Shown here: positions 622-27,737 of the stretch, piece after piece | Layout of the letters: every line of letters starts with the position of its first letter | Numbering within the stretch: position 1 is the first letter of the stretch | Assembly: GCA_963752595.1 (NCBI GenBank) | Contig: CAVVYZ010000028.1 | Location: forward strand, 1-28,368 | Direction: 5' to 3' | DNA length: 28,368 nucleotides | Origin: an uncultured delta proteobacterium | GTDB taxonomy: Bacteria; Desulfobacterota; Desulfomonilia; UBA1062 | The notes under the pieces: generated by a model | Database searches by the model: none | What the model was told of the DNA's origin: nothing | The model's input: only the letters and a program-made list of their open reading frames with translations | Translations under genes and position numbers: made by a program

Positions 622-3600
622 GTGAATGTTGCCAAGACTACGATTCACAAGTCCCTGCTTTCATTAAGGTCACTCCTCAAAGATATATTCGTAAAAAAAC
701 ACCCTCCTGTCGAGCCGCCGCTGCGGGCGGAACTGCTCAGCCGCGACCAGATGAGGCAGCATGGAAAGGAACTGGCGGACTCGCATAAGGTGACGAAGAA
801 ACGCGTCTCCGGAAAAGCTTCTGGCAAGACTGACCGATAATGAAGACGTCCTGGTTGAAACCTGCAGTCTGCTGACTTCGGCCGTCAAGGCGAACCGCCG
901 GATTGCTCCGGCCGGGGAATGGCTGCTTGATAATTTCTACCTGATAAAAGAGCAGATCCGCACAGCCAAAAAACACTTGCCCAAGGGTTACAGCAGGGAA
1001 CTGCCCCGCTTGTTGAGCGGCCCATCGGCCGGGCTTCCGCGCGTGTACGACATCGCCCTGGAGACGATCTCGCACGGCGATGGACGGGTGGATGAGGGAA
1101 GCCTGAGCAGTTTCATTGCAGCCTATCAGCAGGTCACAGCGCTGAAGTTGGGCGAATTGTGGGCAATACCAATCATGCTGCGCCTGGCACTGATCGAGAA
1201 TCTCCGGCGGGTCGGGGCCCGGATCGCCGCTGACAGACTCGATCGGAACCTGGCCGACTCATGGGCGGACCAGATGACGGAGGTTGCCGAGAAGGACCCC
1301 AAGAGCCTGATCATGGTGATCGCGGACATGGCGCGTTCAAACCCGCCCCTGTCGAGCTCATTTGTTGCAGAACTTACGCGCCGGCTGCAGGGCCAGGGCC
1401 ATGCTCTGGCGTTGCCGCTCACCTGGATCGAGCAGTGGCTCTTTGAGTCCGGCCTGACCATCGAGCAGCTGGTCCAGTCGGAGACCCAGCAACAGGCCGC
1501 GGACCAGGTCTCCATCAGCAACAGTATCGGCAGTCTCCGGCTCTTAGGCGCGATTGACTGGCAGGAGTTCGTCGAAACGAGGAGCTTTGTCGAGCAGATA
1601 CTGCGGGAGGATCCTTCCGGGGTCTACCCAGGATGGATTTTGCCACCCGTGATCGATACCGCCACGTAGTTGAGAAGATAGCGAAAAACAGCCTGCTATC
1701 CGAAGAAGAGGTGGCACGGCATGCGATCCGGCTGGCACACGATGGCGCTGACAGTAACGGCGACGCGATCGATCGGCCCATGTCGGGTTTTACCTGATCG
1801 ACAAGGGCCTGCCGCAGCTCGAACGAATGGCTGATATGCGCATATCCACTGCCGACACGTTTCGAAGAACGTGCAGCCGATTTCCTTTGCTCCTCTATCT
1901 AGGCTCGATCACCCTGATAACAGCGATCTTTACCGCAAGCCTGCTGGCAAAGGCTCATGCCGATGGGATTCATGGCCGGCTCCTCACGCTGATCGGTATC
2001 CTCCTGGTTTTGTGCACCAGCCATCTTGCTGTCGCACTGGTGAACTGGCTGGCGACATTGCTGGTGACGCCGCATCCGCTGCCGCGCATGGACTTCTCCG
2101 AAGGAATTCCTCCGGAATTCCACACCCTGGTGGTGATACCGACCATGCTTACGAAGCGCTCAGAACATTGAGAATCTGGTCGAGGCGCTCGAAGTCCGGT
2201 TCCTGGCAAATCGTGACGATAACCTGCACTTCGGCCTGCTGACTGATTTTGCCGACGCCCGCGAGGAAACGCTGCCCGAGGACGAGCCGCTGGTGCAGCT
2301 TGCCCGGAAAAGGATCGAAGAGCTCAATGAAAAGTACCGGGATGCTCATGGCGACATGTTCTTCCTTTTCCATCGGCCGCGCCTCTGGAACCCGCAGGAG
2401 CGGATCTGGATGGGCTACGAGCGTAAGCGGGGGAAGCTTGCGGATTTGAATTCGCTTCTGCGCGGCGGTTCAAAGGATCACTTCTCGCTTCATTGTCGGG
2501 AATACGGCCCTGTTATCGGACGTCAAGTATGTGATCACCCTGGACACGGATACCATGCTCCCGCGCGACTCGGCGCGGCAGTTTGTGGCAGCCATGGCTC
2601 ATCCGCTGAATCGAGCGCTCTATGACGAAAAAATGCGGCGGGTTAGTGAAGGGTACGGCATCCTGCAGCCGCGCGTGGCCGTGAGCCTGCCGGGCACGAA
2701 CCGATCGTGGTATGCCAGGCTGTATGGAAGCGATCCGGGCATTGATCCGTATACCCGCGTCGTATCCGATATTTATCAGGATGTATTCGGTGAGGGTTCG
2801 TTCATCGGCAAGGGAATCTATGATGTCGATGCATTTGAGCTGGCCGTTCATGGGCGCTTTCCCGAGAACAAAATCCTCAGCCACGACCTTGTGGAAGGGT
2901 GCTATGCCCGCTCCGGGCTGCTCTCCGATGTACTGCTCTACGAGGAATATCCATCCCGCTACAGCGCGGACGTGAATCGCCGGTATCGGTGGATCCGGGG
3001 GGATTGGCAGATTTCGCGCTGGCTGTTGTCCCGTGTTCCGGTTCTCGGCGGGCATCGCGAAAAGAATCCGCTCTCGGGGCTGTCCCAATGGAAGATCTTT
3101 GACAACCTGCGCCGCAGTCTCGTGCCTCCGGCATTGACCCTGCTGTTGCTGCTTTCCTGGACCGTCCTGTCACCGGCCTGGCTCTGGACCTTGGCGGTGA
3201 TCGGGATCCTCATGGTTCAGCCCGTGCTTGCATCGGTTCTTGAACTGTTCCGGAAGCCGAGGGATGTGCTGCTGGGCCAGCATCTCTCAGCCTCAGATAC
3301 GCTCGGCCGGCCGGAACTTCGCCCAGGCGGCATTCACTCTCGCCTGCCTTCCCTATGAGGCGTTCTTCAGTCTGGATGCGATTTTACGCACTACATGGCG
3401 GTTGCTGATCGCCCGAAGACGGCTGCTCGAATGGAATCCTTCGGGCAATCCGGATAGACGCACGAACCTTCTCGGCTCGTTCCGGACCATGTGGTTCGCC
3501 CCCTGTATTGCCTTTGCCGCAATTATCCAGCTCGCTTTTTCGAGTCCGGCATCATTGGTTTATGCCTGGCCCATACTGGGCCTCTGGTTTGCCTCGCCGG

Positions 3601-6600
3601 CTGTCGCGTGGTGGATCAGCAGGCCGTTCGCCCGCCCGGAAGCATATTCTGAGCGCCGATCAGACCATCTTTCTCCGGAAGATCTCCCGAAAGACCTGGG
3701 CATTTTTCGAAACATTCGTCGGCCCGGAGGATAATTGGCTGCCGCCTGACAGTTATCAGGAGAATCGTCCTGCTCCGGTTGCACATCGCACATCGCCGAC
3801 CAACATGGGCCTTTCACTTCTTGCAAACCTGTCCGCATACGACTTCGGCTATATACCCTGCCGGACAAGTCCTCGAGCGCACAGCGAACGCAATCCGGAC
3901 GATGGAAGCCTTGGAACGCTACCAGGGCCACTTCTACAACTGGTATGACACGCAGTCCCTGAAGCCGCTGCCGCCTCTGTACATCTCGTCGGTGGACAGC
4001 GGGAATCTCGGGGCTCACCTGCTGATATTGCGCTCAGGCCTGCTCGCGCTTCCCGATCACAAAATAGTGAGTCCGCGGTTGTTTGAGGGGTTGAGCGACA
4101 TACTCGGGGTCTTCATGGAGGCTGCAGGGGAAGACGCAACAGAAGCGCTCACAGGGTTTCAGAATGATCTGGCCTCCGCAACCCTCTCCCGGCCGACTAC
4201 GCTCCAGCGGTACGGCTTGCATCGAGAGGCTGACGACGTCCGCCGAGGATCTGGTCCGCTCCCTGGGTGAGAGCCTGAGAGCGAAGCGAAGTGGTGGGCA
4301 TCGGCCATGGCCCGGCAATGCCGCAGCGCGTTGGATGAGCTGACCTTTCTCGCCCCGTGGACAGCGCTTCCTGCCGTTCCCGGACAGGCTCGGTGATTTC
4401 AAGGTCATCGGAGATATCCCAACGCTCTCCGAACTGGCAAGGCTCGATAAGGAGCTGCTGCCGGCAATCAGCCATCAACAAGCAGGCGCACGCGGCACCC
4501 GAGGAGATCGAGTGGCTTGTTAAGCTTCGGGATCTCATCAGTGAAGCAAGCCGGCGCGCCCGGGAGAGAATAGCAGCCATCGCCACCCTTGCCCGGCAAT
4601 TAAACGAACTGGCGGACATGGAGTATGGCTTCCTGTACGACAAGGCGCGTCATCTGCTCTCGATCGGGTACAATGTCGGGGAGGACCGGCGGGATTCGAG
4701 TTTCTACGACCTGCTGGCTTCGGAGGCGCGACTGTCATGTTTCGTGGCCATTGCCCAGGGACAACTGCCCCAGGAGTCCTGGTTCGCCCTGGGACGCCTT
4801 CTCACAAATGCCGGCGGAGATCCGGTTCTTCTCTCCTGGGACGGCTCGATGTTCGAGTACCTCATGCCGCTCCTGGTAATGCCGACCTACGAAAATACCC
4901 TGCTCGACCGGACCTACAAGGCGGCTGTGGAGAGGCAGATCGAGTATGGGATGCACCGCGGGGTCCCGTGGGGTATTTCGGAATCCGGATACAACATGGT
5001 CGACGTTCATCTGAACTACCAGTACCGGGCATTCGGCGTACCCGGCCTGGGGCTCAAACGCGGATTGGCCGAGGAGCTTGTCATTGCACCGTACGCCTCG
5101 GCGCTGGCGCTGATGGTGGCGCCTGAGGCGGCATGCCTGAATCTGCAGCGGCTCGTCAAAGAGGGGTTTGCGGGAAGATTCGGCCTTTTCGAAGCAATCG
5201 ACTACACGCCTTCACGTCAGACGCGCGGGCAAGCTAACGCCGTGGTCCGGTCCTTCATGTCCCATCACCAGGGCATGAGCCTCCTGGCCCTGGCCTATAC
5301 CCTTCTGGACCGTCCGATGCAGCAACGATTCGAGTCTGATCCGCTTTTCCAGGCGACAACGCTTGCTGCTTCAGGAGCGTGTTCCCAAGGCAACGGCGTT
5401 CTATTCGCACACCACAGAGCTCTCCGATTTACGCACGATTCCCGTCGGCCTGGAGACTCCGGTACGTGTCTTCAGCAGCCCGGACACACCGGTTCCTGAA
5501 GTTCAGTTGTTATCGAACCGCAGATACCACGTTATGGTCACGAATTCGGGAGGCGGCTACAGCCGCTGGAAAGACATCGCCGTCACCCGATGGCGCGAAG
5601 ACACTACCAGCGATAACTGGGGAGCATTCTGTTACATCCGCGACAGTGGAAAGCTCGTGAGTTCTGGTCAAATACCTTTCAGCCGACTCTGAAACAGCCG
5701 AAGCTCTATGAGGTGATTTTTTCAGAGGGCCGTGCAGAGTTCCGCCGCCGCGACAATGATATCGACATGCATACCGAGATCGCCGTCTCGCCCGGAGGAT
5801 GATATCGAGCTGCGCCGAATCCGCATCACCAACCGTTCCCGCAGGCACAGAGAGATCGAGGTGACGAGTTATGCGGAAGTCGTTCTCGCACCGCCTGCCG
5901 GTGATGCGTTGCATCCGGCGTTCAGCAACCTCTTTGTCCAGACCGAGATCCTCCGCCCGCAACGGGCGATCCTCTGTACCCGCCGGCCCCGCTCCAAGGG
6001 TGAGCCCGTAGCCGTGGATGCTTCACCTGATGGCCGTGCACGGGGCGCACACCGGAGAAGTTTCCTATGAGACCGACCGCATGCGGTTCATCGGCCGGGG
6101 AAACAGCCTTGCCTCTCCTCGAGGCAATGAGGAAATCCGCTGTGCTCTCGGGCAGCGACGGCTCCGTGCTCGATCCGATTGTCGCGATCCGGCACCGGAT
6201 CATGCTCGATCCGGGAAAATCGGCAACGATCGATATGGTCACCGGCGTCAGGTGAAACAAGGGACACAGCATTGAGCCTTGTCGGAAAAATACCAGGACC
6301 GGCGCCTTGCGGATCGCGTTTTCGATCTGGCGTGGACGCACTCTCAGGTGATCCTGCAACAGCTCAATATCACGGAGGCCGACGCACAACTCTATGGACG
6401 CCTTGCCGGCTCCGTCATCTATGCCAATTCGTCACTGCGCGCCGACCCGAGCCTCCTCATCAAAAACAATCGCGGGCAATCCGGCCTCTGGGGCTATGCC
6501 ATTTCAGGCGATCTGCCCATTGTGCTGCTGCAGATCAAAGATCCATCCAATATCGAACTGGTGCGCCAGCTCGTCCAGGCCCACGCTTACTGGCGCTTAA

Positions 6601-9348
6601 AGGGACTGACCGTGGACCTGGTGATCTGGAACGAAGATCACGCCGGTTACCGGCAACTTCTGCAAGACCAGATCATGGGGCTCATTGCCGCAGGCATCGA
6701 AGTCAACGTGACGGATCGGCCGGGAGGCATCTTTGTAAGGCTCGCCGAGCAGATATCGAGCGAAGACCGCATCCTCTTCCAGACAGTCGCCCGAGCCATC
6801 ATCAGTGACAGCAAAGGCGCCCTGGCGGAACAGCTCTACCGGCGAGTCGTTGCCGAAGCAGCCTTGCCGCAACTCAATCCGACCCGGACACACCGCCCCG
6901 AACCAAAGTCTGTTGTGGCGTTACCTCGCCTTGACCTGGACTTTTTCAACGGGATCGGAGGATTCACCCCTGACGGGAAAGAGTACGTAATTACGACAGC
7001 GCAGGATCAGTTGACACCGTCGCCATGGGTGAATGTCCTGGCGAATCCGAACTTCGGGACCGTCATCTCGGAGAGCGGGATTGCCTACACCTGGAGCGAA
7101 AACGCCCATGAGTTCCGCCTCACTCCGTGGAACAACGATCCTGTGGGCGATTCAAGCGGAGAAGCGTTTTACCTCCGTGATGAAGAGCGCGGCCACTTCT
7201 GGTCGCCCATGCCGCTGCCCAGCCAGGGAGCCACGCCTTACGTCACCCGGCACGGGTTCGGTTACAGCGTCTTCGAGCATACGGAACGCGGCATCCGCTC
7301 AGAGGTGTGGGTTTACGTGGCAAAGGACGCACCGGTCAAGTTCACCGTACTCAGAGTGCGGAACGAGTCGGGCCGAAGCCGGAAGCTCTCTGTGACGGGT
7401 TACGTCGAATGGGTGCTCGGAGACCTGCGGCCGAAATCGGCCATGCATGTGATTACCGGGATCGACCCGACCAGCGGCGCCCTGTTTGCTCGGAACCCTT
7501 ACAGCACTGAGTTCTCCGGCCGGATCGCCTTCTTCGATGTGGATGACTCTGACCCGGACCGTTAGCGGCGATCGAACTGAGTTTATCGGGCGTGGCGGCA
7601 CGCTACGAAATCCGGCTGCAATGAAGCGGTCGCGGCTTTCCAACAGAGTAGGGGCTGCTTACGATCCCTGCGCCGCTATCCAGGTCCCCTTCGAGCTCGC
7701 AGACGGCCAGGAGCGAGAGATCATCTTCAGGCTCGGTGCAGGGCGGGATGCCGATGACGCTGTCAATCTGGTTCATCGCTTCCGTGGTTCTTTAGCGGCA
7801 CGCGGCGAGCTTGAAACTCTCTGGCAGTACTGGAACCACACGCTCGGGGCAATACAGGTGGAAACCCCTGACATGGCGGTGAACATCATGGCCAACGGCT
7901 GGCTCATGTACCAGACGCTTTCCTGCCGCCTCTGGGCACGGAGCGGTTATTACCAGTCCGGCGGCGCATTCGGTTTCCGCGACCAGCTGCAGGACGTGAT
8001 GGCACTCATCCACACGAAGCCGCACCTCATGCGCGAGCATCTCCTTCATTGCGCGGCCCGCCAGTTCAAAGAGGGAGATGTCCAGCACTGGTGGCATCCT
8101 CCGTTCGGCCGGGGCGTGCGCACACATTGTTCGGACGATTTTCTCTGGCTCGTTATGGCTGCCTGCCGCTACGTTCTGAGCACCGGCGATACCGGCGTGC
8201 TGGATGAACCCATCAGTTTCCTTGAAGGCCGTCCGGTAAACACGGACGAGGATTCTTATTACGATCTGCCCGTCCGGTCTGAAGAAGCGGCCGGTCTGTA
8301 CGAACACTGTGTCCGGGCCATTGTCAAAGGTCTCAATTTCGGTGAGCACGGCCTGCCGCTCATGGGTTCGGGTGACTGGAATGACGGGATGAACCTCGTG
8401 GGCGAACACGGCAAAGGGGAAAGTGTCTGGCTGGCTTTTTTCCTGTATGATGTGCTTATGCAGTTTGCTGAGGTTGCCCGCAAGCGGGGTGATCTGTCCT
8501 TTGCCGAGCACTGCCTTCAGGAGGCGGCTCAATTGCGCTGGAATATCGATCAGAACGGCTGGGACGGAGAGTGGTACCGCCGTGCTTACTTTGACAACGG
8601 GACGCCGCTGGGGTCGGCGGGCAACCCCGAATGCTCCATCGATTCCATTGTGCAAAGCTGGTCCGTTCTCTCCGGGGCAGGAGATGCAAGGCGCTCACGC
8701 ATGGCCATGGATGCTCTTGATAAGCAGCTCGTTGACAGGGAGCATTCCCTGATCCGGCTTCTGGACCCGCCCTTCGACAAGTCGGAATTGGATCCGGGTT
8801 ACATAAAAGGATACGTCCCGGGTGTGAGAGAAAACGGCGGGCAGTACACGCATGGGGCAATCTGGGCGACCATGGCATTCGCCGCGTTGGGCGATGGCGC
8901 TCGTGCCTGGGAACTGCTTGCCATGATCAATCCCATACATCATGCCGGGTCCGCCGACGAGGTCAGCACTTATAAAGTCGAACCATATGTTGTTGCTGCC
9001 GATGTCTATGCACTTTCCCCGCATACCGGCCGCGGTGGCTGGACATGGTACACGGGTTCGGCTGCGTGGATGTACCGGCTGATCGTGGAATCGCTCCTGG
9101 GGCTGAAGCTTGACGGGGACAAACTGCGTTTTGCCCCGTGCCTCCCCGTGAAGGGTTGGGAGACATTCAAGGTCCTTTACCGGTATCGGGAGACGGTCTA
9201 TCACATCACCATCCGGCAAACACATGATGTACCCGGTGAGATGAATGTGGCAGTGGATGGACTCGATCAACAGGACAAGGCGATACCCCTTGTCGACGAC
9301 CACCAGGAACATAAGATCGAGGTGAGAATACCTCTTGCAGGCACCTAA
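622..9348 (+). CDS. ndvB: Cyclic beta-1,2-glucan synthase (GT84 domain + cyclisation domain + GH94 phosphorylase), broken by roughly 15 frameshifts
   Basis: Consecutive ORF fragments carry the family motifs in order: GEWLLDNFY, LPRVYDIALE, LGELWAIPIMLR, WMGYERKRGKL, ITLDTDT, GSFIGKGIYDVDAF, LSHDLVEG, RWIRGDWQ, HRTSPTNMG, GHFYNWYDT, YDLLASEARL, SWDGSMFEYLMP, PWGISES, GGAFGFRDQLQD, GDWNDGMN, RENGGQYTH, WTWYTGSA. AAGGAG SD precedes GTG 622. Confidence 0.93.
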
Positions 9349-11963: not shown

Positions 11964-12013
11964 TTCTACCTCCATGAAGTATGACGGCCGCCGATGCTCC
12001 CTTGGCCCAGAAT

Positions 12014-12051
12014 AAAAAAGGCCGTGGGAGGAAGAACCACCCACGGCCTTT
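12014..12051 (-). terminator. Intrinsic terminator (attenuator) in the aroF leader
   Basis: Minus strand AAAGGCCGTGGG-TGGTTCTTCCT-CCCACGGCCTTTTTT: a 9-bp GC-rich stem plus U6, about 50 nt upstream of the aroF start. Confidence 0.9.
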
Positions 12052-12095
12052 GTGTTCAGTTTTATTGAACAGATCAGCCCACAGGCGGTCCTCCC
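12030..12095 (-). promoter_or_regulatory. Antiterminator hairpin of the aroF attenuator
   Basis: GGGAGGACCGCCUGUGG (12095-12079) pairs with CCGUGGGUGGUUCUUCC (12046-12030) over 17 contiguous pairs (11 WC + 6 GU). The inner stem is UGUUCA/UGAACA. Confidence 0.75.
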
Positions 12096-12148
12096 CTGAT
12101 AAACCAGAAGTAATAATAACCAAAATACCTGTCAGCGTTTCTATTCAT
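12074..12148 (-). CDS. Aromatic-rich attenuator leader peptide [24 protein letters not shown]
   Basis: ATG AAT AGA AAC GCT GAC AGG TAT TTT GGT TAT TAT TAC TTC TGG TTT ATC AGG GGA GGA CCG CCT GTG GGC TGA; 4 Tyr, 3 Phe and 1 Trp within codons 8-16. Confidence 0.88.
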
Positions 12149-12154
12149 CTTAAA

Positions 12155-12160
12155 AGTATA
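12155..12160 (-). promoter_or_regulatory. -10 box for the leader-aroF transcript
   Basis: TATACT lies 6 nt upstream of the leader ATG. There is no canonically spaced -35 (TTGAAA is 21 nt away). Confidence 0.5.
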
Positions 12161-12319
12161 TATGGCAAAGATCCTTGCGCTTTTCAAGGAGAAAATGGCC
12201 TATTGAAATTATTGTTTCTTTTTATAGTAACATTTCTTATCTGAAAGAACCCCCGTTCTGCAGGCAAGAGAAGTATTTTCAAGAGCTTTTCATTGACAGA
12301 GTAACCCTGCTTTGCTACG

Positions 12320-12471
12320 AGAGGATAACCCTGCTGCGGATTCAAGGGAACCCGGTGAGATTCCGGGACGGGGCCGCCGCTGTGAACGGTGACAGATGCT
12401 CGCAAGAACGACCACTGCGCGAGCGGGAAGGTAAGGGCATCTGGATGATCCGTGAGCCAGAAGACCTATCC
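12320..12471 (+). ncRNA. Cobalamin (B12) riboswitch
   Basis: AAGGGAA-CCCGGTGAGATTCCGGG-ACGGGGCCGCCGCTGTGA...CCACTG...GGGAAGG...GAGCCAGAAGACCT B12-box; GGATA/TATCC closing stem; sits upstream of a TonB receptor; TTGACA at 12293-12298. Confidence 0.93.
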
Positions 12472-12538
12472 GCAAGTAAAGGACTACATCCGCGGGCCTG
12501 GATGGAGACTCCAAGGGAATATACCATGGAGGTGTCCA

Positions 12539-14570: not shown

Positions 14571-15710
14571 ATGCTCACATTTTATACCGCCGGAGAGTCC
14601 CATGGCAGGGGAGTATTCGCCTTTCTCGACGGCATCCCTGCAGGATTGCAGGTGGACAGGGATACTATCGATGCCGACCTTGCCCGCCGCCAGAAGGGCT
14701 ACGGCAGGGGCGGCAGGATGACGATCGAGAAGGACACCGTGGACGTGCTCTCCGGCATCAGGGGAGGAATTACGCTCGGCAGCTCCGGTCATGCTCGCGG
14801 TGTGGAACAGGGACTTTGAGAAACTGGAACGAGATACATGGACCCCTGGAATATCGAGCCGGGGAAAGAGCTCTATACCCCGAGGCCGGGCCATGCCGAC
14901 CTGGCAGGGGCCGTACGGTTCGGGCATACCGATCTCAGGAACGTCCTCGAGCGCTCCAGCGCTCGGGAAACCGCAGGCAGGGTCGCGGCAGGGGGTCTGC
15001 TCAGGTCTCTGCTTGCCGCTCTCGGCATCGAAGTCTGCTCCTGGGTACTGCGCATCGGCCGGGCCCATTATGAAGGCCCTTTCGACCGGGCTTCAAGGAT
15101 GCTTCGAGCGTGTTCTGCCCTGATCCGGAAGCGACCGAGGCCATGGAGAAAGCAGATCGACGAGGTCAAAGAGCAGCGGCGACACCATCGGCGGCGAATT
15201 CAAGGTCGTGCTTACGGGGCTGCCTGCAGGCATCGGGTCGTACACCCAGTGGGACCAGCGCCTCGATACTCTGGTAGCCGCGCATCTCATGTCCATCCCC
15301 GGCATCAAGGCGGTGCAGATCGGCAAGGGAGTCGAATGCGCAGAGATTCCCGGCTCGAAGCTCCATGACGAGATCCTCCCCGGTACGCCCAAGACGAGAA
15401 CTTCAAACAATGCGGGCGGCATGGAAGGAGGCATATCGAATGGTGAGCCCATCGAGGTGCGCTGCACCATGAAGCCCATCCCCACCTTGAGCAAGGGCCT
15501 GCAAATCGGTCGACATCCGGGACGGCTCACCTGCACAGGCCCAGTATGAGCGCTCGGACTATTGCGCCGTGCCTGCCGCCTCGGTCGTGGGGGAGGCAAT
15601 GGCTGATCATCGCGGTCTCAGAAGCGATCCTTGCAGAGCTTCGGCCTTCCGGACATGGGCTCGCTGAAGCAGGCCTTTGAAAATCACCGGAAGGCTGGGA
15701 GGCCCTATGA
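14571..15710 (+). CDS. aroC: Chorismate synthase (several frameshifts; end approximate)
   Basis: [65 protein letters not shown] and MKPIPT motifs. Confidence 0.95.
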
Positions 15711-17266
15711 TCTTTCTCACCGGATTCATGGGCTCCGGCAAATCGACCGTGGGGGCGAGGCTGGCTACGCTCCTGGAATGCCTTTCATCGGATCTGGATG
15801 CCGTGATCAGCAAAAACGCCGGAACCTCCATACCCGATATCTTCCGCTGTGCAGGCGAGGAGGCCTTCCGGTTCCTGGAGCGCAAGGCCCTGCTCGATAT
15901 CGCGCCGCGGGCAAGCCGGGCGTGATCGCCACAGGCGGGGGACTGCCGGTCAATCCTGCCAACCGGAAGATTATGAAGGCCTCGGCGCTCATCGTGCACC
16001 TCAGAGCCATCCTTCGAGACCATCATGAATCGCATCCCCGACGATCAGAGCAGGCCTTTGTGGAACAGTGACTCCCGCGCCTCTTTCGAATCGAGGAAGG
16101 ATGCGTACGGCGATGCGGACCTCATCGTCGACACCGATACGAAGACCGTAGAGCAGATTGCCGGGCGAGATCTTCGCAGCCGTTTCAGGGTATGTGCAGC
16201 CCACCGGGGTCATCCTGCCGGACAGCCCTTATCCGGTCTATATCGGGAAAGGCATTTTCAGGGATATCCGGTCCCTGATAAGCGCCACACTGCTCCCGAA
16301 GGCCTGTTTGTCCTTGTGGATGAAAATGTCGTGAAACATCACGGAGGGCTCATCGAAAGGCGCCTCGGCATACAGCCGCATTTCATGATGACTGTTCCGT
16401 CCGGAGAGGAATCGAAGTCCTCCGCCTTCCTGAATAAGGTTCTCGAGGAGATGTTCTCCCGCCGGGTGAACCGCCAGTGGGTGTGCCTGGCAATCGGCAG
16501 GAGGGGTGACCGGCGATCTTGCCGGCTTTGCGGCGAGCATCTACATGCGGGGAATCCCGGTCATCCAGGCTGCCACGACACTGCTGTCCCAGATCGATTC
16601 CAGCATCGGCGGCAAGACCGGCATCAACAACGAATTCGGCAAAAATCTCATCGGCTCTTTCCTTCAGCCGCTCTTCGTCCTGTGCGACATGGATTTCCTC
16701 GCCACCCTGGATATGCCCAGATAAAAAGCGCCATGGCAGAGGTGATCAAGTACGGCATCATCATGGACAGCACCCTCTTCGAATACATCGAAAACAGGGC
16801 TGCCATCGATTATGAAAAGATCGTGCGCATGTGCGCCCGGGACAAGGCCCGGGTCGTAAGCGAAGATGAGAGGGAAGGGGGCTTAAGGAGAATCCTCAAT
16901 TTCGGCCATACCCTGGGCCATGCGGTCGAGAAGAGCACGGCTATACCATTCTCCATGGAGAGGCCGTAGCACTGGGCATGGTGTTTGCCGCATGGCTTTC
17001 CTTAAGCAGGGGGATATTCTTCCCGACCCGATTTCGACCGTATCAGAAGTGTTATAGACAGAGAAGGGATTATCCCTGTTTCCTTACGGCTGCCGAGCCC
17101 CCGGGAGGCGGCAGAGGCCATGTCCATGGACAAGAAGGGCGAGGGCAGGGCTATCCACTTTGTGTTGACACCGTCCATAGGGGATGTTAGCGTACAAAAA
17201 CTTTCTGAAATCGTAGTATTGGAAGCTTACAAAGGATTTGCTGATGGATATGCTAAAGGCCTTTGA
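15707..17266 (+). CDS. aroKB: Shikimate kinase / 3-dehydroquinate synthase, apparently fused (frameshifted)
   Basis: AroK part: [34 protein letters not shown]. AroB part: [85 protein letters not shown]; stop TGA at 17264-17266. Confidence 0.85.
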
Positions 17267-17759
17267 GCGAGGCGATTTCCTTCAGATCATTGAGTCTGCC
17301 GATAAAGCAAGCGGCCCTGAAGATCAGCTCCTGCTGGGGATCTCCCTCTATAAGCTCGGGAAGCACCGGGATGCCATGAAGGTATTTCTGAAGCTCTCAG
17401 ATACCGTCAGGGACCTTGCCCAGGTCTTTTACTACATGGCTCTCATCCATAAAGAAAAGGGCGATATGGAGTCGGCGCGCTCCTGCATCGAACACTATAC
17501 CCACTTCTATACGGATGATGAGGAAGCCCTTGAGATCCTGGAATCCGGCCGTGAGCAGCCCCCGCTCGTGAGCGTGCCCTCGCTGGAGCTGGCAAAGGTC
17601 TATGCGGCTCAGGGGCACTTCGCTCAGTCCCTCGAAATATTCGTAAACCTGCTGGAGGAATCGCCGTCGGATCCCGATGTTCGGAAAGAAGCCGAGCGGG
17701 TCCAGACCATGCACGTCGATCAAAACCCTGGAACGATGGCTGGAAAGGATGAAAAATGA
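17244..17759 (+). CDS. Tetratricopeptide-repeat protein
   Basis: TPR-like helices [31 protein letters not shown] and [18 protein letters not shown]; probable frameshift near the 3' end. Confidence 0.8.
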
Positions 17760-18202
17760 AAGTACTGATGATCAACGGACCCAACCTGAACCTTCTGGGC
17801 ACAAGGGAAAAGGTCATTTATGGTACGGCCTCCCTTTCCGATATCGAACAGACCGCCCGGGAGAAGGCCAAGTCCCTCGGGCTGGAGCTCACCGCATTCC
17901 AGTCGAACCACGAGGGGGACATCATAGATAAGATCCATTCCGCGCGCGGCCTCGGGATAAGCTGCATCCTCATCAATCCCGGGGGGTATACGCATACGTC
18001 GGTGGCCATCCGCGATGCCCTGCTCGCCGTGGACATACCGTTCATAGAGGTGCACATCAGCAACGTATCTGCCAGAGAGCCCTTCAGGCAGAAGGACCTG
18101 TTCTCCGACATCGCCATAGGAACCATCTCAGGGCTCGGGACCCTTGGCTATATCCTTGCATTAGAGGCACTGCATGAATTACTCGGATCAAAGGCTCGCT
18201 AA
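17756..18202 (+). CDS. aroQ: Type II 3-dehydroquinate dehydratase
   Basis: [36 protein letters not shown] and EVHISN..RE.FR motifs. Confidence 0.97.
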
Positions 18203-19255: not shown

Positions 19256-19819
19256 ATGCAGTACTCAACCGCACAGTTTCGCAAAGGCTTGAAGATCGAG
19301 ATCGCCGGAGAACCGTTGACCATCGTGGACTTCCAGCATGTCAAACCGGGCAAGGGCGGCGCGTTTGTGCGCACCAAGATGAAGAGTCTCATTTCCGGCA
19401 ACACCCTGGAGAAGACCTTCCGGTCCGGCGAAAAAGTGGATGTGCCGAATCTCGAAGAAAAGACCATGTCATTCCTGTACCAGGATGAGTCAGGCTACTG
19501 GTTCATGGACAGCCGGACCTATGATCAGATGAACCTGAAGGAAGACAACATCTCGGAGGCCATGGGGTATCTCAAGGAGAACATAGAGGTGGGGATCCTC
19601 TTTCACAACGACAAACCGATCGGCATCGACCTGCCCATGTTCATGGAGCTTGCCGTGGCCGAAACAGATCCCGGCGTCCGCGGGAACACTGCATCAGGAG
19701 GGTCGAAACCTGCAAAGCTCGAAACAGGCAAGACAATCCAGGTGCCCCTTTTCATCAACGAAGGAGATATCGTCAAGGTAGACACCAGAACTGACGAATA
19801 TATTGAGAGAGTGAGCTAG
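19256..19819 (+). CDS. efp: Elongation factor P
   Basis: HVKPGKGGAFVRTK loop and VPLFINEGD..KVDTR; intact 187 aa. Confidence 0.98.
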   Translation: MQYSTAQFRKGLKIEIAGEPLTIVDFQHVKPGKGGAFVRTKMKSLISGNTLEKTFRSGEKVDVPNLEEKTMSFLYQDESGYWFMDSRTYDQMNLKEDNISEAMGYLKENIEVGILFHNDKPIGIDLPMFMELAVAETDPGVRGNTASGGSKPAKLETGKTIQVPLFINEGDIVKVDTRTDEYIERVS

Positions 19820-27662: not shown

Positions 27663-27737
27663 GGGCCGCTAGCTCAGGGGGAGAGCGCTACCTTCACACG
27701 GTAGAAGTCGAAGGTTCAAATCCTTCGCGGCCCACCA
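27663..27737 (+). tRNA. tRNA-Val (anticodon CAC)
   Basis: GGGCCGC/GCGGCCC acceptor stem; AGCTCAG D-arm; CTACC-TTCACAC-GGTAG anticodon arm; GAAGG-TTCAAAT-CCTTC T-arm; encoded CCA. Confidence 0.98.

Follow-up and report, generated by a model that had tools for sequence, protein, structure and literature searches.

The DNA analysed here (the window: 28,368 nucleotides from an uncultured delta proteobacterium) carries on its minus strand an ORF with 8 aromatic codons within a 9-codon tract (codons 8–16), ahead of aroF, the gene of a type I-beta DAHP synthase. The locus raises the question of whether, and how, translation of this short ORF controls transcription of aroF through the region lying 70–130 nt 5′ of the gene. 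We conclude, with a probability of roughly 0.88, that the aroF leader is a classical ribosome-mediated leader-peptide transcription attenuator for Tyr, Phe and Trp, with a predicted promoter and a presumably translated ORF. This reading was built by sequence and comparison, from the ORF, the helices 1:2, 2:3, 3:4 and 4:5 and their conservation, and the downstream gene.

An attenuator is supported by the nature of its target, the first enzyme of the shikimate pathway, and by the match between the aromatic tract and the three end products of that pathway. The locus contains an ORF with end-product codons, an intrinsic terminator between this ORF and the gene, mutually exclusive 2:3 and 3:4 helices and, as a structure, a protector or pause hairpin 1:2. 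In constrained folding, a stalled ribosome is predicted to free segment 2 and further translation to mask it. The features of the leader are collected in the table.

Table. Features of the aroF leader and gene in the window.
Feature	Position	Strand	Basis or detail
aroF, 339 aa	10944..11963	-	NF006421 502.9 bits (cutoff 335), TIGR01361; PF00793 and PF18152 (N-terminal ferredoxin-like regulatory domain)
aroF Shine-Dalgarno GGAGG	11969..11973	-	sequence
Leader ORF, 24 codons, stop TGA 12076-12074	12074..12148	-	ORF, aromatic tract and C-terminal PPVG-stop kept in 40 aligned leaders
Control codons Y8 F9 G Y11 Y12 Y13 F14 W15 F16	12101..12127	-	4 Tyr, 3 Phe, 1 Trp
Predicted promoter: -35 TTGAAA 12187-12182, 17 nt spacer, TG 12167-12166, -10-like CATATA 12164-12159	12159..12187	-	
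Segment 1 (protector arm)	12128..12147	-	12136-12128 pairs 12085-12077; 12147-12140 pairs 12073-12066
Segment 2 (antiterminator 5′ arm)	12076..12096	-	conserved part 12091-12081 and 12079-12076, 12080 bulged
Cap hairpin in antiterminator loop	12053..12071	-	occurs in both folds, compatible with both states
Segment 3 (terminator 5′ arm and loop; antiterminator 3′ arm)	12029..12050	-	
Segment 4 (3′ arm of the terminator; pairs with segment 5 when freed)	12018..12030	-	
U-tract of intrinsic terminator	12011..12019	-	sequence; U-rich tail kept in 40-leader alignment
Segment 5	11997..12008	-	12023-12019 pairs 12008-12004; 12030-12026 pairs 12001-11997
Segment 6, probable relic (second-terminator 3′ arm), no U-tract after it	11986..11992	-	alignment with relatives; inferred

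In the proposed mechanism, a ribosome stalled at codons 8–16 would cover segment 1 and keep segment 2 free, and 2:3 would form before segment 4 leaves the polymerase, so blocking the terminator. With the A site at codons 18–20, the mRNA channel would cover the core of segment 2, 3:4 would form, and transcription would then stop in the U-tract near 12012. Shortage of any one charged tRNA (Tyr, Phe or Trp) would let aroF be transcribed, an OR logic in which one amino acid should suffice. The strength of the response to each amino acid would be expected to follow the number of its codons and the charging of its tRNA, not masking of the arm. After read-through, the freed segment 4 would pair with segment 5.

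A leader-region match was found in 43 of 52 genomes of the window's family, including 31 of the 34 high-quality ones. We aligned 40 leaders (alignment A1), 20 from the first locus set and 20 of 25 further regions, one row being the second copy in the window's own genome; outside A1 are L017 and L033, truncated where their contigs end, and L040, L042, L047 and L048, which the leader pattern missed. Tyr, Phe and Trp codons occur together in 36 of the 40. The promoter-like pattern TTG-17/18 nt-TGn[CTA]A[TG] was present in 30/40 leaders, 6–7 nt 5′ of the ATG in 26 of these; in the window, 10 nt separate the box from the leader ATG. SD-like words precede the leader ORF in 5/40. The closeness of the promoter to the ATG and the rarity of SD-like words suggest that the leader ORF is probably leaderless or nearly so. 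A strict sigma-70 scan called no promoter at the leader, and Pfam gave no match for the leader peptide or for the ORF after aroF.

The sequence-only reading had proposed that the last codons of the leader ORF pair over 17 uninterrupted positions with the 5′ arm and loop of the terminator, all exceptions to Watson–Crick pairing being G–U wobbles. This helix was recovered as described: 12095–12079 pairs contiguously with 12046–12030, with 11 Watson–Crick pairs and 6 others, all of them G–U, and an 18th pair (G12096–U12029) lengthens it. The cap stem (12071–12066/12058–12053) and the stop codon (12076–12074) also lie exactly where that reading had placed them. The antiterminator fold has a free energy of −36.0 kcal/mol (z −6.0) and the terminator fold −25.2 kcal/mol (z −6.9), neither equalled in 200 shuffles. 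Because each requires 12046–12040, the antiterminator excludes the terminator, and the claim that the two are mutually exclusive stands. A simple terminator scan with a loop limit of 8 nt did not call the aroF-leader hairpin, whose loop is 11 nt or holds an inner mismatch.

The length of the helix was compared with several chance expectations. When the upstream 98 nt were dinucleotide-shuffled 5000 times, one shuffle gave at least 17 pairs (shuffle mean 8.7 pairs) and none gave a duplex as good as the real one. Synonymous recoding of the leader gave at least 17 pairs in 26 of 5000 trials. Among 578 background windows, 3 reached this length, two of which correspond by index to the leader helix itself and to the complement of its arm.

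Over the 40 leaders, the 17-pair register was 84.7% paired. Its outer four pairs hold in 30, 20, 7 and 7 leaders, and 8 contiguous pairs outside the core were found in 4/40; the full 17-pair length is specific to this genome and is not a family trait. The family helix comprises 11 bp, a bulge at 12080 and 4 bp, and its 15 pairs were 95.5% paired over the 40 rows, compared with 33–49% in slid controls. At the inner end, the bulged register holds in 38–40 of the 40 leaders and the previously proposed register in 33 and 38. The 15-pair helix shows 36 two-sided changes on 4 pairs, and 0/500 shuffles scored as high. They include A–U, G–C and G–U at 12089:12036, and a change from C–G to U–A at 12087:12038 that replaces Pro with Leu. 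The compensatory changes that the sequence-only reading had suggested looking for thus support the antiterminator helix, through few events: a 20-leaf tree of DAHP synthases from the family places 3–4 changes at 12089:12036 and one at 12087:12038. The antiterminator core is mostly invariant, and the terminator constrains it too.

The other helices are also kept. The terminator was 99.1% paired in the family alignment, with two-sided change at 3 pairs, and the cap hairpin was paired in 78.8% of cells, with two-sided change on 4 of its 6 pairs. The 1:2 protector hairpin (−29.7 kcal/mol, z −4.3) was paired in 76.1% of cells and had 8 two-sided changes, a result matched in 2/500 shuffles; the cognate partner was the better one in 38/39 rows. 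The sequence-only reading had included neither this hairpin nor the 4:5 helix, nor the probable near-leaderless start. RNAalifold on A1 returned the terminator and one 2-bp stem, and nothing else.

Leaders of genus g14 (L010, L034–L039, L044–L046) have a second Trp codon directly 5′ of PPVG, within the antiterminator arm, where it base-pairs with the loop of the terminator. Since a ribosome stalled at this codon would favour termination, the codon is probably set by RNA pairing.

The bacterial mRNA channel measures 11 nt, counted from the P-site codon's first nucleotide, in the relevant passage of PMC7282821. Constrained folding was performed for the window and the 40 leaders with ribosome edges from +9 to +18 and with the upstream 5′ RNA either blocked or free. 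The predicted fold depends on the position of the ribosome, as had been proposed: with the A site on Tyr8–Phe16 and segment 3 out, the probability of the antiterminator core was about 0.9 (in the window 0.85–0.90 for edges +11 to +15, after segment 3 and the loop have emerged), and with the ribosome at the stop codon it was 0.00. The proposal that termination requires a ribosome at the TGA was not borne out in the same models, in which the core was already lost at codons 18–20 (17–19 with free 5′ RNA), five or more codons ahead of the stop. Nor did stalls at the last Trp and Phe codons cover the arm, since a ribosome at Trp15 reaches 12099 and one at Phe16 reaches 12096, masking 0 of the 17 pairs. 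Folding with ribosome footprints, a check put forward with the sequence-only reading, thus upheld the switch by position but neither the flip at the stop nor the masking by late stalls. Across the family the predicted switch is sharp, with a core probability of 0.90 at four or more codons before the first Pro and 0.04 one codon before it (edge +11, upstream blocked).

With upstream RNA blocked, mean core probabilities over the family were nearly equal for stalls at 137 Tyr, 130 Phe and 36 Trp codons (0.89, 0.89 and 0.90, respectively); with it free (+11), they were 0.83, 0.79 and 0.77. Because the stall values are similar and the arm is unmasked at Trp15 and Phe16, masking predicts no stronger response to Tyr than to Trp, and the expectation of such a difference finds no support. 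A version of the same attenuator in which Trp15 and Phe16 stalls antiterminate less than Tyr stalls, nested within our preferred reading, nevertheless has some evidence in its favour. When the 5′ RNA was free to re-pair with segment 2, the core at first exposure reached 0.05–0.37 for Trp15 and 0.30–0.46 for Phe16, compared with 0.68–0.90 for Tyr, and with the edge at +18 the Phe16 core fell to 0.03–0.14 at later exposure. We consider this grading by position unlikely, though the least so among the alternatives. There is no direct masking at +11; the core returned to 0.85–0.90 later for edges +11 to +15 (0.90 for Trp15 seven nt later); the family means differ by at most 0.07; and the first Trp codon exceeded 0.5 in 36/36 leaders with upstream RNA blocked and in 31–33/36 with it free. 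Base pairing around a ribosome is, moreover, sterically doubtful.

In the ribosome-mediated attenuator that we favour, the decision to read through must be kinetic, since on transcripts that stop at the U-tract equilibrium favours the terminator: for RNA ending at 12012, its predicted probability was 0.81–1.00 at nearly every ribosome position among those listed, with one case at 0.34. The findpath barrier from 2:3 to 3:4 was 23.7 kcal/mol in the window and 10.5–24.5 kcal/mol among the 14 rows listed, these values being upper bounds. The genome-specific outer pairs plausibly account for the high refolding barrier of the window. Folding without a ribosome gave a core probability of 0.04–0.25 at first exposure and 0.90 seven nt later (family mean 0.43); as the core reaches 0.90, the model does not clearly predict that untranslated RNA of the window terminates by default.

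The leader ends in Pro-Pro (12088–12083), where an EF-P-dependent pause could possibly hold the ribosome on segment 2. The pair is not invariant, being LP and LS in L019 and L020, and an efp gene lies at 19256–19819 in the window.

Stalling caused by the nascent peptide (TnaC-like arrest), by a ligand (riboswitch) or by an RNA-binding protein, and not by hungry codons, is an explanation that we judge improbable. The almost invariant C-terminal PPVG would suit it, but the codons of PPVG form the antiterminator arm and vary along with it (LPVG, LSVG), distant leaders have other C-terminal residues, and arrest driven by a product would have the wrong sign for a biosynthetic gene. A ligand is suggested by a weak match to the Rfam trpB motif (RF04312) over 12010–12147 (21.9 bits, E 0.93), which is far under the gathering threshold of 59 bits and has no counterpart in 15 homologous loci; the corresponding passage of PMC11109978 assigns the motif to Firmicutes and Fusobacteria. 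The Rfam Phe_leader (RF01859) scored 16.9 bits against a gathering threshold of 55, and no Rfam family reached its gathering score over the aroF leader.

Slightly less probable still is control at the level of aroF translation, by masking of the ribosome-binding site, with the terminator secondary. Segment 4 and the loop contain a CCUCC anti-SD word and segments 5 and 6 lie just 5′ of the SD, yet opening the binding site cost on average 10.8 kcal/mol in either state (of 39 leaders, 19 had the higher cost with the ribosome at the stop and 15 the lower), blocking segment 5 did not raise the SD cost (4.7 vs 4.3), and the terminator with its U-tract is the best-conserved part of the leader. The idea of segment 5 as a Shine-Dalgarno protector was likewise not supported. 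A constitutive terminator with chance upstream complementarity is the least probable of all, for although the terminator is the dominant equilibrium fold of RNA that stops at the U-tract and G–U-rich helices arise easily in shuffled sequence, a 17-pair helix is rare there, compensatory changes occur, the aromatic ORF is conserved, and the terminator sits between a conserved promoter and the gene.

Past the U-tract, the attenuator is extended by the 4:5 helix, in which 12008–11997 pairs with the terminator 3′ arm (−16.7 kcal/mol, z −3.2, 1/200 shuffles). The helix was significant against shuffles (p ≤ 0.05) in 30/40 family leaders. Its cognate partner was the better one in 36/39 rows and 11/13 genera, compared with 15/39 and 7/13 for a control region (L039, being truncated, was left out).

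Aromatic leaders of differing sequence precede aroF in 20 of 21 sister-family regions, and a loose scan of distant aroF loci found them in 33/68, against 11/65 reverse-strand controls. From the sister-family and distant-locus list, 46 distant leaders were chosen by eye, 26 of which have two terminator-like hairpins and 28 significant 4:5 pairing. In controls, all from the window's genome, two hairpins occurred in 0/260 random windows, and a second terminator followed 2 of 27 sampled terminators. With four near-duplicates and L079 (second hairpin distant, no 4:5) left out of the 26, a relay subset of 21 leaders remained; it spans the sister family, Syntrophia, Desulfuromonadia and Nitrospirota, and its kin are not independent. 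Cognate 4:5 pairing beats non-cognate in 19/21. Folding at equilibrium with a stalled ribosome predicted 2:3 in 21/21 and 4:5 in 19/21, and with the ribosome at the stop codon 3:4 in 20/21 and 4:5 in 2/21.

Where a second terminator lies between leader and gene, it requires an antiterminator of its own, for which segment 4 is the candidate. The two terminators would then work as a domino, with 2:3 and 4:5 in the on state and 3:4 and 5:6 in the off state, the freed 3′ arm of the first terminator becoming the antiterminator of the second. On the folding models we lean towards the view that this arrangement, in which one Tyr/Phe/Trp leader peptide would control two serial terminators, is common to the aroF leaders of Desulfomonilia, Syntrophia, Desulfuromonadia and Nitrospirota. 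Plain duplication of a hairpin would likewise yield 4:5 complementarity, yet it would silence the gene unless relayed in this way. Basal leak is named as a design problem of attenuators in part of PMC1183508. If the domino holds, two leak rates would multiply and a longer ribosome stall would be needed, making it a compact means of cutting the leak that could be used for tighter RNA switches.

The second hairpin of the relatives aligns with segments 5 and 6 of the window (alignment A2). A second terminator 5:6 with a U-tract was found in 0/39 leaders of the window's family, and the 5:6 hairpin was not significant in the window (p 0.40) or in 33/39, being significant in 6/39. The sequences suggest that in this family the second terminator decayed and the 4:5 helix was kept under selection. 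The helix may therefore serve some further purpose; we speculate that it could lock the read-through fold or cover a pyrimidine-rich stretch on which Rho might load, or that it is a relic.

Members of genus g6 (L016, L053, L054) retain a strong 5:6 hairpin of −23 to −27 kcal/mol, with an A-run in place of a U-run after it. Aromatic leaders also precede aroF in Planctomycetota, Acidobacteriota and a Thermodesulfovibrio record (L119, L121, L123, L141, L143, L106, L112); these have one terminator (none called in L143), and their 4:5 pairing was not significant. The idea of a ruler in the distant leaders, whereby the antiterminator arm begins at the edge of a ribosome on the last control codon, was not significant: 17/38 fell within +8 to +18 against 13.5 expected from shuffled arms, with 9 cases confounded by the choice of second hairpin.

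Attenuation of aroF has a precedent in the aroR–aroF attenuator of C. glutamicum, which Neshat et al. reportedly studied in 2014. There, an aromatic leader peptide precedes a DAHP synthase gene under ribosome-mediated attenuation, as described in passages of PMC11802643 and first noted in PMC4046766, and the window shares the aromatic-codon leader, the DAHP synthase gene and the predicted mode of control. The phylum is another, and the window differs in having 8 aromatic codons in 9, including Trp; the passages on aroR–aroF mention no 4:5 helix. AroR carries Phe-Tyr-Phe and is described as responding to Phe only (PMC11802643), its Tyr codon giving no response to Tyr, so that the presence of a codon is no proof of sensing.

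The order 1:2, 2:3, 3:4, the control codons 5′ of segment 2 and an antiterminator about as stable as the terminator are also found in E. coli trpL and pheL, going by portions of PMC1183508 and PMC11802643. Those leaders respond to one amino acid each and serve branch-specific operons, whereas the window has codons for three, a gene of the common pathway and the extra 4:5 helix. A kinetic model of attenuators is also given in PMC1183508. The enterobacterial his attenuator, as presented there, likewise goes beyond four pairing segments, an addition proposed to reduce basal read-through; its extra hairpin lies between pause hairpin and terminator, whereas the extra helix of the window comes after the first terminator and, unlike that of his, is predicted to govern a second terminator in relatives. 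The Acholeplasma uORFC-13-1 motif, also predicted by comparison, combines a uORF and a terminator before aroF, but the account in PMC8632094 gives it a run of Phe only, 24 representatives and another phylum. Two serial terminators in one 5′ leader occur in the rimP-leader of some Gammaproteobacteria, for which the passage in PMC2965389 describes no leader peptide and no domino, and the sensor is unknown.

Passages of PMC11109978, PMC1262725 and PMC4833913 contain nothing on the aroF-leader element. The literature searched gave no description of it in these taxa, though paper supplements or the comparative survey of Lopatovskaya et al. 2010, which may extend to delta-proteobacteria, could list it, and it gave no report of one leader peptide controlling two terminators. 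Leader attenuators of aroF as such are already known, and the extra 4:5 helix, or relay from a single leader, is apparently new. The antiterminator helix alone would be a textbook mechanism in one more lineage; the architecture that would matter is a three-amino-acid OR gate at the entry to the shikimate pathway, with, in relatives, one sensor for two terminators.

A strict attenuator scan of the genome found the leader of the window only and missed a second copy. This second aroF, at G000:C23:21736-22883 (−), locus L055, lies in three frames and has its own leader, MITASATRYYGFYFGFIGEEPPVG, without Trp. The region is about 70% identical in DNA to the window over 2.5 kb and resembles L049, from another genus; given this likeness and a genome contamination of 6.8%, the copy may be foreign. 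A third DAHP synthase paralogue at G000:C1:133817-134821 (−), with 56% identity, has no aromatic leader upstream, and the same holds for L056–L058. A genome scan with a 12-nt pattern gave 18 matches, compared with 15 for the control, and no leader was visible at the four inspected.

Divergent from the aroF leader, a cobalamin riboswitch (RF00174, 81.2 bits) lies at 12306–12487 (+), with a TonB-dependent receptor gene 3′ of it whose best model, TonB-B12, scored below its cutoff. Further genes of the shikimate pathway, for chorismate synthase (in pieces), shikimate kinase and type II dehydroquinase, lie at 14571–18202 (+), 2.4 kb from aroF on the opposite strand, and an ORF amid them is presumably a dehydroquinate synthase gene from its resemblance. 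The splitting of many genes of the window into overlapping ORFs suggests indel errors in the assembly. A very long gene in many pieces at 977–9348 (+) resembles what we take to be a cyclic beta-glucan synthase/GH94 phosphorylase. A tRNA gene (RF00005) is located at 27663–27734 (+), with the anticodon read by eye as CAC (Val).
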